Both the position numbers and the translations under genes were made by a program. Positions 14,070 to 31,328 of a stretch of 64,000 nucleotides of DNA are shown here, piece by piece. Origin of the DNA: Gammaproteobacteria bacterium (GTDB lineage Bacteria > Pseudomonadota > Gammaproteobacteria > UBA1113); NCBI GenBank assembly GCA_965230425.1, contig CBDDKW010000024.1, forward strand, positions 141,727 to 205,726. Direction: 5' to 3'. Position 1 is the stretch's first letter. Each line of letters begins with the position of its first letter. The notes beneath the pieces are model-generated. The model had not been told where the DNA came from and ran no database searches. It saw nothing but the letters and a program-made list of their open reading frames with translations.

Positions 14070-14319
14070 ATTACTCGCTTAGACAGCCCAAACAAGCATC
14101 CATTAACTGTGCTAGCAAGTATGCAAAGTTTTCTGGCTCTTTGCCTAGCTCATTCACCTCATACTACCCTCCAGCCCCAACAGAGGATATATTTTTAATT
14201 ACCTTGAGAATAATTCTGCTATAATCAATTAACTTATAAAAAATGTATAAAAAAATAAATTCCAAATAATACTTGTAATTATAACACTTAGTGGTATATT
14301 TAAAACATAAGGACATAGT

Positions 14320-14842
14320 ATGGTTATTTTAAAGGGTAAGTCGTTCACAAAGTGGGCAAAATCAGCAGGACTCAAAGACACTCAACTAGAACATGCAGTG
14401 AAGGAAAATAAAAATCCCCGAGGCAAGCCTCGGGGTATTTTATTTCCTAGTCATATTTCGCCTGCGCGAACCAAGTTCGCGCGACGGCGACTTAAGGGGA
14501 GTCTACACTGACTCCCCTTAAGAATCCCCAAGCGTAAAATGCCCGCAGCAAGCTGCGGGGAATCAAGTTGAAGTAGGATTATTCGACGTTCATCTTGGCA
14601 ATGGATTATACAAAAAACGTATTGCTAAAAAAGGCTTCGGCAAACGCTGTAGTTATAGAACTGTCTTAGCCTTTGCAGAAGATAAGCGAGCCATCTTTTT
14701 ATATGGTTTTCATAAAAAAGATAAAGCAAACTTATCAACTATAGAGCTAAAAGTTTATAAACAATTAGCCAAATTATTTTTGACAAGTAAGAATGATGAA
14801 TTACGTACATTGATTAACAATGGTGACTTAATGGAGGTTTAA
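14320..14842 (+). pseudogene. Disrupted HigB/RelE-family (COG4737-like) type II toxin gene. A 29-codon N-terminal fragment and an approximately 85-codon C-terminal fragment lie in different frames, separated by a hairpin-rich insertion.
   Basis: The N-fragment MVILKGKSFTKWAKSAGLKDTQLEHAVKE is followed by translation of the insertion. From about 14576, the C-fragment LFDVHLGNGLYKKRIAKKGFGKRCSYRTVLAFAEDKRAIFLYGFHKKDKANLS... is in another frame with no start codon. Together the fragments span a full-length toxin of about 114 aa. Confidence 0.6.
14407..14575. repeat. Composite element of four GC-rich hairpins (REP/MITE-like) inserted into the toxin gene
   Basis: H1 (14407-14444) is aataaaaa-tccccgagg-caag-cctcgggg-tattttatt. 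H2 (14464-14482) is gcgcgaac-caa-gttcgcgc. H3 (14491-14522) is cttaaggggagtc-tacact-gactccccttaag, a 13-bp stem. H4 (14542-14559) is cccgcag-caag-ctgcggg. H1 and H4 share the gcaagc loop core. Confidence 0.7.
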
Positions 14843-14843
14843 A

Positions 14844-15167
14844 ATGTCTATTATCAAAAAAAAGGATAAGTCAGCCCTTGAGGTTGCACATGAGTTAGCA
14901 CAAGGCTTGCATAAAGCCGGCGTCATTGATGCTGTTACCATGCGAGAGTTTGATGCTGATTGCTTGCCGGAGGTCAAAGTACTATCAGCACAAGACATTA
15001 AAGCATTAAGACTCAGAGAGAATATCAGCCAGCCTGTGTTTGCAAAATGCTTAAATACTACGCCATCCACAGTAAAACAATGGGAACAAGGTGATAAAAA
15101 CCCACGAGGCACATCCTTAAAGTTACTCAATCTTGTCTATGATAAAGGCCTAGGGATCTTATTCTAG
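14844..15167 (+). CDS. XRE-family HTH antitoxin (HigA-like partner of COG4737 toxins)
   Basis: 107 aa with a C-terminal HTH (ENISQPVFAKCLNTTPSTVKQWEQGDKNPRGTSLKLLNLV). It starts 1 nt after the toxin-remnant stop. Confidence 0.7.
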   Translation: MSIIKKKDKSALEVAHELAQGLHKAGVIDAVTMREFDADCLPEVKVLSAQDIKALRLRENISQPVFAKCLNTTPSTVKQWEQGDKNPRGTSLKLLNLVYDKGLGILF

Positions 15168-15506: not shown

Positions 15507-16497
15507 TTACCTTATCAAACATACACTCTCTCCTATTCCGACTTGTGATTGAACAATCAAAATATGGTGCTTACATTGTCGTATTTTGCGTAGTTGATAA
15601 TGATATGCAAGCAACAATGGCATACTCGCCGCACCTACATAACCCAAAGAATACTCTAATGAAAACAATTCGGGTTGACGGGGATCAGTTTTTCGTGAGT
15701 TTAAAAATACATCTCGGCGTATAATCTGCCACTTGTTAGCTTGCTGCTTCGAAGCAAGTGCATCAAGATATACAGCATTAATAGCATCTGTAGTAATAGA
15801 CCATGCTTGACACCTGTATTTTATACTATCTGTCCAATTAGAATATGATTTCCCTCTATTAGATTGTTTGGAAGATCTTATTTTAAGGTTATTGGCCTTA
15901 TCGGCTAAAGATATCTCCACAAATGCTGCCGCCTCGCCTGGAATAAACCCTACTTCTTGCGCATAATTATCGAGTAATTTATTTTGTCGCATCAGCGCAT
16001 ATAGAATATTCACTGTCAATAAAACTATCCACAGCACCTAGTAACACCTTATTCTCTGCATTATTTTTTAGATCAGTATACATCTGCTGACACAGTAGAT
16101 TAAATGGTGTATCCATTCCCTTAAATTGAATCGATACCTGGCAATCGCCAACATCACACAGCGTTAAAATGAATTTAAACAACGATTCACTAAAATAATC
16201 ACGTCGTTCTGCAGACAGTTCAGGCATCAATAAATAAATGGTAATGTGCTTATCTGATTTATACTGTGCGAGTAAGGGCTGTAAAGCTCGCTGCATTAAA
16301 TCAATAAGACGTTTTTCATAATTATTCATGGGTAGACTTGAATCATCAGCAATTAAGCCATAACTCAAATACTCTTGCTTAGCACAACGCAACCAATCTG
16401 CCTTATGAACTAAACTTTTACGTTGCTTCACTAGAGTAATTAACTCGACTAAAGAATCAGTTAAACCCGTTGCTATACTGGCATTGTTGATATACAT
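15507..16497 (-). pseudogene. Gene remnant split across two overlapping frames (172-aa and 176-aa ORFs overlapping by 59 nt), probably a frameshifted hypothetical gene
   Basis: ORFs 15979..16497 and 15507..16037 are on the same strand in different frames with a 59-nt overlap. A third frame (15207..15512) follows directly after the second stop. Confidence 0.45.
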
Positions 16498-16907: not shown

Positions 16908-19900
16908 ATGAGGATAATAACAGTGGCAAAGCATCTTCCTGCAGTGATTGCTGCAATTAAATCGACCTATGAAAATAATAAAGAAGTTATTGAAAGTAAT
17001 GAAAATACCAGTGAACTTATCCAGCTACTCGAACAAGACTCACCTCAATTTATTGATATTGTTCGCCATCTCTATGCGCTGCGCAACCAAACCACAAATG
17101 CTACTATTACAAAACTCACAAGAATCATTTTTTGTGCAGGTCATAAATATCCTTTGTCGTACCTAGCTAAACCAGAAGCTTCATTAAATCAATATGAACT
17201 ACAGCAGATTGAACAAAGTTATCAATTATTTGAAGCATGTGGAAACCAGGATAACAAATTTGAGACGCTACTAGTATTCATACTTAGTCTGTACAACATC
17301 GATGATTGTCAAATCGTCACAATGGACCAAACGGCAGAAAATACTCAAAAATTCCAGCAAGGTATTATCAAGATACTTCGGCTAGCCAATACCCCTGCTA
17401 GCAGAGATCATGAAGATAAAAATGAATATTCTTATCTATTGCGAATTATGATTTATGCTGATGCTACTGCAACTATTGATTTCCTAGATTGTTTTTGTAA
17501 AAAAGACGGATGTTACCAAACCACGGTCGAACAATTTTTTCAAAATGAGCGCATCATAGAGCCATTATGCACAGAATTTTTAAGTCAATTCAAAAGTATC
17601 ACCTCAAAACATGGCCGTTTATTACTGGCGAAACATCAACTATTGAGCCAGCTACACAGTATTCAGAATATAGAAGTTGATGAACCCTTTGCTGACATAT
17701 TCGCTCAATGCTCCGGCTATCAGATTAAGCAAGCAATAGCTAACATACAAAATCATCCTGCTTCAAACAGGAACACAGAACTATTATCTGCAATCATTGC
17801 ACGTTACCAATCACTTTGGCCTGAAAATGCCAACCCTATTCTTGAGAACAATGTAGATAATCTAGCGTTGCTTGTACGTTATTTCTATCTAATAGATGTT
17901 GTATTTAATCCTATACGCAACTTTATGAACTTCACTGCCCCTATTCCGAACACATTACCAGCAGATAAAACATCAACAGTTAGCCAGGTACTCTGTCTGC
18001 ATAATATGGATTGCCCAGTTACTCGTGCACCTTTACTGCTAACTGAAGATACTCCGCTAGTAACTGAGCGTAAATACATAAAGACCGCACAAACATATGT
18101 TATTACAGCCATAGACGTCATCGAAGAATTGATACAAATCATGGATAGCTTAAACGCAAAGATACAGTTACAAAATCAACTCTTGAAAAAATGCATAGAT
18201 TATTTTCACGCACTATTAGATGCCATACGATGGAATGATGGAAGTACATCACAAGAAACTTATGAAGGTTATATTCGTAATCTTCTGGAAGCAATGATGC
18301 CCTTATTAAAATCGAATAAGACACAAGAGCTTGCCACTGATCATTCTGAATTACCTAGCGATGCACTTAAAACTATCTATAAATCTTTAGTCAGCAAGCT
18401 ACCGCTAATGCAGTTGACTAGTCCATTTATAGACAATTTAGTAAATATATTCGACTGTTATCAAGATTTAACCATTTGGTCATTGCTTAAGAAATTTAAA
18501 CAGAATGAAACAAGATCAGATACTGTTCAAAAATTATTAGCGCATTTGAAGGTATCACCCAACTCAACGCCGCAGATGCAAGTTAATTATGCACAAGTGC
18601 TTTATCATGCGCATAAATATCACAGTTACGTACTCACACGAGATGACCTTAGCCAGATACTTATTTTTTGTCCTGAGCTTAGACAACAACTACGAGATGA
18701 CTTTAAAGATGATAGCAAGCAAACAGGCCGCTTAGTCTATTTGTCTTATATGATACAGACCTTTTATGGTGAGGATCTTGAAGCAGATACTGAATTTAAA
18801 GAAATAGCAGATGCACTTAGTAAACAAACAACCCTGGCAGCAAAATACTATGGACAACACCGCCCCACATTATTCAAATTAACTCAGCGCAGTACTTTCT
18901 TAAGCTTCGTCGGAAAACAGCAATTAGCAGATGAGAAATTTAGTGATGTCGATAATATTCAGACATTCCGTCAAATGATGTTGGATGTGCTACGCGAAGA
19001 TATTCCTCTCAGTGCCGAGCTCATAAGCTACGATCTTGTGAGTGAGTGCCCAACTGGTAGAGAACGCACACCAACAGACTTTATGACTCGTGAATTCTTA
19101 GGAGAGACTGCATCAACAACCATGCTATGGGCCTTGGTTATTATGCGTCATTACGCACTAGAAGATGAAAACCCAGATAATGAATTTATTCAAGCCTGTG
19201 AACATAACATCGTTGCATTATTGCATGAAAGTATGGCTACTCGCTTTAAACCATCACCCTATATGGACCTCCCAGGCTATTTAGATGCCCATTTAGCCGA
19301 GTGCTTAGTAAACCTATCTGACAATGAACGTGCTCATATCCCTAATACAGAGGAACTCATCACTGGCCATTATCAACGTGCATTTACGCGAGGTTATCAG
19401 ACGAGGCAGCTTGCTAATCCCGCTCACTTTCCTCGCTATATCGATGTGCTAACAAAAGAAGTCTCACTATCACACTGGCAGATGCTGCAGGCCCTGTTTG
19501 CAGAATGTATACGCGCTGACGAACAAGCTAGCTTTGACAATGAAATATATGCCAAATTAATTATTTATTATAATACCTTAAGGAGCCAACACCCCCAGCA
19601 TCAACGCTTGCATGATATTGAAGCTCAGCTAGATCAGCTAGGCGCCGCACCTTATCAAACATCAGAAAGCTCGGCTCCCCTTGGTCATTGTCGCCTCAGA
19701 TTTTATTTGGCATTGATTTGCATGAATATCTATTGCGATACAATTTTAGATGAAATACTGGCTATACGAACAATCACAGATGAAACACAACAACGAGTTA
19801 TCTTAATTGATATACTGCAGCAATTAGTTGAAAACTATGAACGGTTTAACTTTGATGCGACCAAAGTATCTCAATCACTCGGCAAACTTTTTAAGGCTAT

Positions 19901-29807: not shown

Positions 29808-31328
29808 CTATTTGCGGCGTGAACGTATTTTTTCAGGTTTTTGTCGCTTGCCTACTTTTCGCTTTGCAGAAGACGGGGCTTTCTTCTTTGCACCCTTAAA
29901 TGAGCGTTCCTTCTTGAATTCACGATCTTTTGTGTTACGAGAACGACTAGATGGCTTCCCTCTCGAGCGAGCAGGCTTATGACGTCGCTTCTCAGGCTCA
30001 GCGTCAACGGCAACAATATCATGGGTAGGTAATTCATTCGCCTGATCCATCAAATAAGCCAGTGCTGCAGCAATATCTTCTGCGGCATAGCCTTCATCTT
30101 CTTGCATAATCTCTTGAACCATTTCCCGATAGGTATCCAAACGCTTACTCTTGTTAATAATACCCGTTACTTTTTCGGTGAGCTGTTTACTGCGTATGGC
30201 TTTCATTTCTTGTAGGGTGGGTGCTTCAATTTGTGTAATTGATTTATTGATAGCGCGCTCAATATCTTTTAATAAACGTTGCTCTCTTGGAGTCACAAAC
30301 AACAGCGCCTTACCCTTGCGTCCTGCACGGCCAGTTCTACCAATACGATGAATATAGCATTCAGCATCATAGGGAATGTCAATATTAATCACATGACTGA
30401 CTCGCTCTACATCAATCCCCCGTGCAGCAATATCTGTGGCCACGACAATATCTAAAGAGCCATTTTTTAAGCGTTCAACCACTTTTTTACGCGCAGCTTG
30501 GTTCATATCACCATTGAGTGGAGCCGCTGCATAACCGCGTGCCTGTAGCCTCTCAGCAAGCTCTGTTGAATAGGTCTTCGTGCGTGAAAAAATAATCGCA
30601 GCTTGGATATCTTCCACCTCAAGGAAGCGGGTCAAAACATCAAGCTTTTGATTTCTGGCAACTCGAATAAAACATTGCTCAATGGTATCCACTGTATTGT
30701 GTTGTGGCTCAATATGAATTCTTTCAGCATGTTTTAAATAGCGCTTAGCTATTTTTTGAATCGGTGCAGGCATGGTCGCAGAAAACAGTGCCGTTTGGTG
30801 TTGATGAGGAATTTGTTCAAGGATCCATTCAATGTCCTTTACAAACCCCATATTCAGCATTTCATCTGCCTCATCTAACACCACCATTTGTAGTGCGTCA
30901 ACGCTCAAAGTACCACGGCGCATATGGTCCATCACCCGCCCTGGCGTCCCCACCACCACGTGTGCACCACGTTTCAAAGCACGTAATTGGATCCTGTATT
31001 CCTGACCACCATAAATAGGCGCAACATGAAAACCAGGCATATCTTTAGCATAACTTTGGCAGGCTTCCGCCACTTGGATGGCTAGCTCGCGGGTTGGAGC
31101 AATAATCAATACCTGTGGTTCATCCATGGATAGATCTAATTGCGACAATGCAGGTAAAGCAAAGGCGGCTGTCTTACCCGTGCCTGTTTGCGCCTGCGCT
31201 AATAGATCATGCCCTTGCATTAAAACCGGGATACTTTGTGCCTGGATTGGTGTCGGCGTCTCATAGCCCAAGGTCTTTAAAGCTGTTAACAGTGCAGAGG
31301 CAAGGCCCAATTCATTAAATTGACTCAT
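29808..31328 (-). CDS. DEAD-box ATP-dependent RNA helicase (RhlE/DeaD family) with a basic C-terminal tail
   Basis: Has a Q-motif, Walker A (AQTGTGKT), DEAD (VLDEADEM), SAT and HRIGRTGR motifs. The C-terminal 70 aa are rich in Lys/Arg/Ser. Confidence 0.9.
   Translation of the reverse strand: MSQFNELGLASALLTALKTLGYETPTPIQAQSIPVLMQGHDLLAQAQTGTGKTAAFALPALSQLDLSMDEPQVLIIAPTRELAIQVAEACQSYAKDMPGFHVAPIYGGQEYRIQLRALKRGAHVVVGTPGRVMDHMRRGTLSVDALQMVVLDEADEMLNMGFVKDIEWILEQIPHQHQTALFSATMPAPIQKIAKRYLKHAERIHIEPQHNTVDTIEQCFIRVARNQKLDVLTRFLEVEDIQAAIIFSRTKTYSTELAERLQARGYAAAPLNGDMNQAARKKVVERLKNGSLDIVVATDIAARGIDVERVSHVINIDIPYDAECYIHRIGRTGRAGRKGKALLFVTPREQRLLKDIERAINKSITQIEAPTLQEMKAIRSKQLTEKVTGIINKSKRLDTYREMVQEIMQEDEGYAAEDIAAALAYLMDQANELPTHDIVAVDAEPEKRRHKPARSRGKPSSRSRNTKDREFKKERSFKGAKKKAPSSAKRKVGKRQKPEKIRSRRK

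Follow-up and report, generated by a model that had tools for sequence, protein, structure and literature searches.

In a 64,000-nt stretch of DNA from a gammaproteobacterium of the UBA1113 lineage (GenBank assembly GCA_965230425.1, contig CBDDKW010000024.1, positions 141,727 to 205,726 of the forward strand) we identified a toxin–antitoxin (TA) operon of the HigBA2 / ToxP-AntitoxP type whose toxin gene has very likely been pseudogenised by insertion of a 160-bp hairpin element, with the antitoxin left as an orphan. The whole stretch is referred to below as the window; positions are counted from its first letter. Removal of the 160 nt yields a 120-aa protein that matches Pfam family PF06296 end to end, which bears out the split of a toxin gene by a hairpin insert proposed in an earlier note made without database searches (the sequence-only reading).

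Interruption of the toxin gene after codon 29

The toxin locus is composed of the following parts.

14309-14313: AAGGA Shine-Dalgarno sequence of the toxin gene
14320-14406, plus strand: N-terminal 29 codons of the toxin (PF06296 profile positions 1-32)
14320-14511, plus strand: truncated hybrid open reading frame (ORF) of 63 aa, with 29 toxin residues and a 34-residue basic tail from the insert; stop codon TGA at 14509-14511
14407-14566: insertion of 160 nt (±2 nt), 52% GC, with four tandem hairpins
14567-14842, plus strand: C-terminal 91 codons of the toxin and TAA, with no start codon (PF06296 profile positions 28-120)

Translation of 14320-14406 gives MVILKGKSFTKWAKSAGLKDTQLEHAVKE, i.e. 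the 29 N-terminal codons that the sequence-only reading had described. The remainder of the toxin lies in a different frame, as had also been seen; the proposed beginning near 14576 and length of approximately 85 codons had to be revised, homology giving GTT 14567 as the first codon and 91 codons in all. This C-terminal frame reads ...VEVGLFDVHLGNGLYKKRIAKKGFGKRCSYRTVLAFAEDKRAIFLYGFHKKDK...LMEV*, with the stop codon TAA at 14840-14842, and its translation contains the GFGKRCSYR...FLYGFHKKDK core pointed out earlier. The claim that it has no start codon holds as well: the frame opens after TAA 14519, ATG, GTG and TTG are absent until TTG 14780, and the first near-cognate codon, ATT 14621, which is the only one that leaves much of the coding sequence after it, has no Shine-Dalgarno sequence.

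Excision of the 160 nt joins codons 1-29 (14320-14406) with the 91 codons at 14567-14839. The resulting 120-aa protein scores 124.7 bits against PF06296 (cut-off 27) and covers profile positions 1-120 of 120. The junction, E29|V30, is free of gaps in comparison with the three closest proteins (47-53% identical; ...E-(I)-E-x-G-L-F...), which were taken from a collection of 5.8 billion proteins. It is gap-free also in an alignment of both fragments with 100 full-length homologs, where the breakpoint is clean. The interruption was placed at 14407-14566 because the homologs neither lose nor gain a residue at E29|V30; the boundary is uncertain by ±2 nt, the dinucleotide AA being common to both sides. 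As 160 is not divisible by 3, the insert shifts the frame, and no continuous translatable ORF for a PF06296 toxin extends beyond codon 29.

Translation from the toxin start codon runs into the insert and produces the 63-aa hybrid ORF listed above; the source genome's record annotates an identical product of 63 aa as a gene. The 34-residue tail of this ORF is strongly basic (NKNPRGKPRGILFPSHISPARTKFARRRLKGSLH) and is read out of GC-rich hairpins. It recalls the basic peptides reported for Coxiella QMITE1 copies.

Family and state of the toxin coding sequence

The toxin had been described as HigB/RelE-like; the PF06296 match supports this, as does the resemblance of the reconstructed protein to Vibrio cholerae HigB-2 in a comparison with sequences of the PDB (E=2e-4). 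In characterised relatives, RelE-fold toxins of PF06296 are ribosome-dependent mRNA endonucleases. The sequence found here is a pseudogene of this family.

Apart from the insertion the coding sequence is well preserved. Nine intact homologs score 113-165 bits on PF06296, and the reconstructed toxin falls inside this range. The reconstructed toxin agrees with the majority at 25 of the 27 columns that are at least 70% conserved in the 100 full-length homologs; V37 and S58, at the remaining two, are common minority residues. Residues K45, R47, R60 and K79, all in the C-terminal part, are kept and are 99-100% conserved in the 100 homologs; position 77 carries F, the residue found in 91% of them (Y in the other 9%). 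The active-site residues of HigB2 are K49, R51, R64, Y82 and K84, and the equivalent of K79 is essential in ToxP (PMC10098735). Further decay of the toxin frame was sought in the conserved columns and Pfam scores and was not found. Since all conserved toxin residues remain, the insertion probably happened recently, a date that we infer from the retained residues. No paralog of either the toxin or the antitoxin was detected within the 64-kb window.

Antitoxin gene and regulatory region

Upstream and downstream of the split toxin the operon has the following features.

14273-14300, plus strand: sigma-70-like TA promoter (TTGTAA, 16-nt spacer, TATATT, with TG before the -10)
14285-14293: palindrome of 9 bp, CACTTAGTG, within the spacer of the promoter; putative operator of the antitoxin
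14833-14837, plus strand: GGAGG Shine-Dalgarno sequence of the antitoxin, 6 nt upstream of the ATG, as read from the sequence
14844-15167, plus strand: antitoxin gene of 107 aa with an XRE-type helix-turn-helix (HTH) domain (HigA-2 / AntitoxP type), intact

The antitoxin start codon, ATG 14844, lies 1 nt downstream of the toxin stop, and the gene is intact, as had been noted. The protein matches HTH_3 with 28.9 bits (cut-off 23) and HigA-2 with E=5.8e-7; against the NCBIfam equivalog NadS it scores 35.9 bits, related to NadS but below the membership cut-off of 60. The source genome's record also lists the antitoxin as a gene.

The position of the TA promoter aligns with PtoxP of Coxiella QpH1 and with the Aquicella plasmid promoter. 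A palindrome CACT(T/A)AGTG occurs at the same spot, just ahead of the -10, in the promoter described here and in the toxP promoters of Aquicella plasmid 5 and Coxiella QpH1. Promoter and palindrome being conserved with Aquicella and Coxiella, the operon thus retains an intact regulatory front end. AntitoxP binds PtoxP in electrophoretic mobility shift assays, alone or complexed; the binding site was not defined in that work (PMC10098735). The shared palindrome is probably an AntitoxP-type operator, and by analogy the antitoxin at the present locus may bind CACTTAGTG.

Structure of the insert

The insert contains four hairpins in tandem.

14406-14445: hairpin H1, an A-tract, CCCCGAGGC-AA-GCCTCGGGG and a T-tract (-21 kcal/mol)
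14459-14489: hairpin H2, CGCCTGCGCGAAC-CAA-GTTCGCGCGACGGCG (-20 kcal/mol)
14491-14522: hairpin H3, a perfect 13-bp stem, CTTAAGGGGAGTC-tacact-GACTCCCCTTAAG (-23 kcal/mol)
14536-14563: hairpin H4, AAAATGCCCGCAGC-AA-GCTGCGGGGAAT (-14 kcal/mol)

At 52% GC the insert stands out from the window (41%) and from the flanking TA coding sequence (23-37%). The 191-nt stretch around it (14395-14585) folds at -91 kcal/mol, with z=-10 relative to shuffles, and DNA folding parameters give a similar result. The whole 64 kb holds nine perfect GC-rich hairpins with stems of at least 8 bp; four of the nine are inside the insert. With its GC stem of 8-9 bp, H1 scores as an intrinsic terminator on both strands and looks like a bidirectional intrinsic terminator.

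As direct repeats, H4 and H1 share 79% identity over 28 nt; their complementarity is 70% over 20 nt. Since each is itself palindromic, the two may act as imperfect, weak terminal repeats. No target-site duplication longer than 2 nt flanks the insert; at most AA is common to the left flank and the 3′ end of the element. A target duplication in the form of the direct repeats GAAG (14400 and 14570) was weighed and dismissed, because removal of one copy creates an in-frame TAG and because E-V-E-V-G-L is native in homologs.

Copies and database searches

A second copy of the H1 module is present in the window.

29767-29810: second H1 module copy, AAATAAAAnTCCCCGAGGCAAGCCnCGGGGTATTTTATTnCCTA, 93% identical over 44 nt

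This copy is situated between the convergent genes prs (28782-29732) and a DEAD-box helicase (29808-31328, minus strand), and it overlaps the helicase stop codon. It has the appearance of a repeated bidirectional terminator module.

Comparison of the insert with Rfam gave no family at gathering score (the best sub-threshold scores were 18-23 bits against cut-offs of 49-55), and up to an E-value of 10 no credible intron, ribozyme or small RNA family was found. A concatenated six-frame translation of the insert had no match in the protein collection; this negative is uninformative because the known 63-aa ORF was missed too.

The H1 core CCCCGAGGCAAGCCNCGGGG was also sought in genome contigs. It occurs at no fewer than 110 loci of unrelated phyla, and none of the matches listed had the A/T arms of H1, so that the core was set aside as too generic. 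This 20-nt hairpin, CCCCGAGGCAAGCCNCGGGG, sits within several distinct multi-copy repeat families of unrelated phyla: in metagenome-assembled genomes (MAGs) of Muribaculaceae/Bacteroidales (ggccatccgg...ctacagg), in Opitutales (ccttcgcctggcca...catcatggccaggcga), in Treponema (aatgaggct...tatctgtaaac) and in Lentisphaeria (cccgtccatcctat...tattacggac). Separately, a perfect palindrome of 56 bp, CCAAGGGGAACCCTTAAGGGGAGTCCTTAAGGACTCCCCTTAAGGGTTCCCCTTGG, occurs with differing flanks on three metagenome contigs that are AT-rich (568-623, 3509-3564 and 536-591); it has just the 13-bp stem in common with H3.

Relatives of the toxin–antitoxin pair

Plasmid relatives of toxin and antitoxin were found by tblastn, and the best of these belong to Legionellales. 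On Aquicella lusitana plasmid 5 the toxin is 50.0% and the antitoxin 70.6% identical; on Coxiella burnetii QpH1 the values are 42.5% and 65.7%, and the Legionella longbeachae antitoxin is 64% identical (antitoxin identities of 65.7-70.6% were computed over about 100 residues). In the Aquicella, Coxiella and Legionella plasmids an uninterrupted toxin of 121 aa is followed by a 109-114-aa ‘DNA-binding transcriptional regulator’.

The Coxiella relatives are CBUA0028/CBUA0027, i.e. ToxP/AntitoxP. ToxP blocks growth and translation, and AntitoxP binds and neutralises it (PMC10098735). This pair resembles the present one in Pfam family, in its toxin-first operon and in promoter layout, with CACTWAGTG between -35 and -10. 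In Coxiella genomic group V an N-truncated toxP (toxPG) stands beside an intact antitoxP; toxPG was not toxic on over-expression, which led the authors to regard the N-terminus as essential (PMC10098735). The outcome is the same as at the locus described here, with the toxin disabled at its N-terminus and the antitoxin retained. The lesions differ: Coxiella group V has a 5′ deletion, whereas here an internal 160-bp insertion has left the promoter and the first 29 codons in place. Also, unlike the Coxiella plasmid pair, the present locus is chromosomal and belongs to a distant, poorly sampled lineage.

Both partners are detectably homologous, at remote identity, to V. cholerae HigB-2/HigA-2 (PDB 5ja8, 5ja9, 5jaa, 5j9i; PMC5416850). 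Like HigB-2, the toxin has equivalents of the active-site residues K, R, R, Y/F and K, position 77 being Phe and not Tyr, and the antitoxin is HigA-2-like, with the toxin-binding region at the N-terminus and the HTH domain at the C-terminus. Unlike V. cholerae HigB-2, the toxin here is interrupted. In the literature, toxicity or inhibition of translation that the partner neutralises has been demonstrated for Coxiella ToxP and V. cholerae HigB2.

Relation of the insert to known small elements

The insert looks like a small non-autonomous repeat of the MITE (miniature transposable element with inverted repeats) or REP (repetitive extragenic palindromic) kind, unclassified at present, because of its hairpin fold, the mutually similar end hairpins, the second H1 copy and a duplication of at most 2 bp. 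Coxiella QMITE2 elements are 150-190 bp long and have short REP-like versions (PMC5896051). The insert is like QMITE2 in size, in very stable folding, in the existence of a full form beside a short one with a single hairpin (the H1 copy at 29767), in overlap with the ends of ORFs and in the capacity to encode basic peptide tails. Unlike QMITE2, which has direct repeats of 7-11 bp, it has at most 2 bp; the likeness is one of description, with no sequence relationship shown.

A further similarity is to IS200/IS605 elements. Insertion and excision of IS608 neither add nor remove DNA, and the right end of IS608, TCAA, lies 10 nt 3′ of a hairpin (PMC3201880). The insert shares with IS608 hairpins near both ends, the lack of a target duplication and a TCAA right end just 3′ of a hairpin, and its removal likewise gives back the donor sequence exactly. 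Unlike in IS608, the hairpins are perfect palindromes, left-end spacing and target differ, and no TnpA gene was seen among the window ORFs scanned. This resemblance appears weaker than that to MITE or REP elements and is offered as a lead only.

Weighing of alternative explanations

Inactivation of the toxin by insertion, with a free antitoxin or regulator left behind, had been one of two possibilities in the sequence-only reading; it is supported by the frame-restoring breakpoint, the missing start codon of the C-terminal part and the intact antitoxin. The other, an unusual TA architecture, is not supported, as the intact relatives show a plain toxin-then-antitoxin operon. Several observations nevertheless weigh against an inactivating mobile insert. 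Only the H1 module recurs, while the full 160-nt unit and H2-H4 are unique within the window; blastn of the insert against plasmids and phages gave no match, and nothing was found for H1, H2 and H4 in viral contigs. A metagenome scan with the H3 stem produced three copies of the unrelated 56-bp palindrome, with the stem alone in common; such matches are probably due to chance, given a palindromic 13-mer. The 20 window ORFs scanned include no transposase, Y1 and REP-associated tyrosine transposase (RAYT) types among those looked for, which bears on the mobility that we infer for the insert. The undecayed toxin frame fits a recent event but equally continued constraint. Finally, no antitoxin promoter passed a consensus scan of the sequence downstream of the terminator-like hairpin, the toxin C-terminal part included.

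Misassembly through a repeated hairpin, with a real toxin gene that is continuous, is quite improbable. In its favour, the H1 module is repeated, and palindromes cause difficulties in sequencing and assembly; yet removal of the 160 nt restores codons exactly at both junctions, which a repeat mis-join would not achieve and which makes an artefact unlikely. In addition, H2-H4 are unique sequence, not collapsed repeats, and the contig is long (207,884 bp). We give an equally small chance to a reversible switch, in which the insert would be an IS200/IS605 element (a palindrome-associated transposable element, PATE) or a REP/RAYT element, mobilised by an HUH transposase encoded elsewhere, and precise excision would restore the toxin in some cells. 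The duplication of at most 2 nt and the exact restoration of the frame on removal agree with such a switch, as do the similarity of H1 and H4 in the same orientation, the TCAA a few nt 3′ of H4 at the end of the element (cf. the IS608 right end; PMC3201880) and an otherwise pristine toxin ORF. The scanned ORFs lack a Y1 or RAYT transposase, however; the palindromes are perfect, in contrast to the imperfect, strand-marking hairpins of IS608; the left-end spacing is 9 nt versus 19 nt in IS608, with the flank GGAA and not TTAC; and the likeness consists of few short features. It is very improbable that the insert belongs to an undescribed hairpin-ended family moved by a single-strand (HUH-type) transposase, whose scarless excision would serve as a reversible toxin off-switch in rare cells.

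We very much doubt that the C-terminal 91 codons are a short functional toxin that is translated by way of a non-canonical start codon and remains the partner of the antitoxin. Among the 150 best representative homologs, about a quarter have only 72-113 aa and begin near the start of the C-fragment. In several of these short homologs, however, the first residue is V or L or an internal Met of the family consensus (M-E-x-G-L), as in cut or miscalled genes on short contigs. With the C-fragment as query, an exhaustive HMMER search yielded 1098 matches at E<=1e-3; of the best 150, most have 118-135 aa, and in most of them the C-fragment aligns from about residue 30 onward. As the relatives are longer, as ATT 14621, without a Shine-Dalgarno sequence, is the sole candidate start ahead of 14780 in the absence of ATG, GTG and TTG, and as N-truncated Coxiella ToxP (toxPG) is not toxic (PMC10098735), a complete short toxin was rejected. 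Removal of the insert at the RNA level or in translation, by a tiny intron, a ribozyme or a ribosome hop from GAA to GAA that would give full-length toxin, has next to no probability. The insert structure is indeed very stable, and GAA codons stand both at the take-off site (14404) and at 14570. Against this, Rfam has no intron or ribozyme that matches, even with E-values as high as 10, 160 nt is far smaller than group I or II introns, and a GAA-to-GAA hop would drop two conserved residues; bypass and intron were both rejected on these grounds. In the bypass of T4 gene 60 a stop codon stands right after the take-off codon; here no stop codon directly follows it.

Genomic context

The window is chromosomal: it contains the start of a 16S rRNA gene, tRNAs, dksA, nusB, nrdR and prs. 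The 5′ end of the 16S rRNA gene is at 1-212 (minus strand), where the window edge truncates it. For the epimerase gene upstream of the TA module, the nearest relative is only 59% identical, and other matches are labelled Legionellales MAGs. The best protein matches and the 16S rRNA gene suggest that the source is a deep-branching, poorly sampled gammaproteobacterium related to Legionellales, without a close sequenced relative. In the nearest relative available the upstream gene order is kept, with an ankyrin-repeat gene in place of the TA module; as the module is missing at the syntenic position, it is accessory DNA at a variable spot.

Four ORFs around the TA module have no Pfam match: 7501-9723, 15507-16037 (minus strand), 15979-16497 (minus strand) and 16908-22073 (740, 176, 172 and 1721 aa, respectively). 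The 740-aa gene is absent from the syntenic contig of the nearest relative, where the ankyrin-repeat gene is downstream of the epimerase. The region around the module is variable and possibly rich in effector-like genes.

Proposed course of events and significance

On the preferred interpretation, toxin inactivation by insertion, the insert shifts the frame, so that translation from the toxin ATG ends after 63 aa, and the catalytic 91 codons are stranded without a start codon; with the frame shifted and the C-terminal part stranded, no active toxin can be made. Transcription from the promoter would meet the predicted H1 terminator ~90 nt into the operon. Transcripts reaching 14833 could be translated into antitoxin from its own, strong Shine-Dalgarno sequence. 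The antitoxin is presumably still made, expression being assumed, either from transcripts that start at the autoregulated promoter and read through or by way of a weak promoter inside the operon; in the Coxiella operon predicted internal promoters were inactive (PMC10098735). A low steady level of antitoxin is plausible because the antitoxin would repress its own promoter: less antitoxin would de-repress the promoter and allow more read-through. The protein may then function as an orphan that represses transcription at its own operator, and it may confer immunity against related plasmid-borne toxins; a role as regulator or in immunity has likewise been suggested for conserved antitoxP (PMC10098735).

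Decay by loss of the toxin is a common and ordinary route for TA pairs; the unfamiliar part is the inserted element alone. Beyond annotation the relevance is small: the locus should be read as a toxin pseudogene and an orphan antitoxin of the HigA-2/AntitoxP type, not as two hypothetical ORFs. It adds a second, independent case of toxin loss with retention of the antitoxin in the ToxP/AntitoxP family, which fits the idea that antitoxins are kept as regulators or for immunity against plasmid-borne toxins. The insert itself may represent a new family of small repeats, in a lineage that branches deeply and is related to Legionellales.

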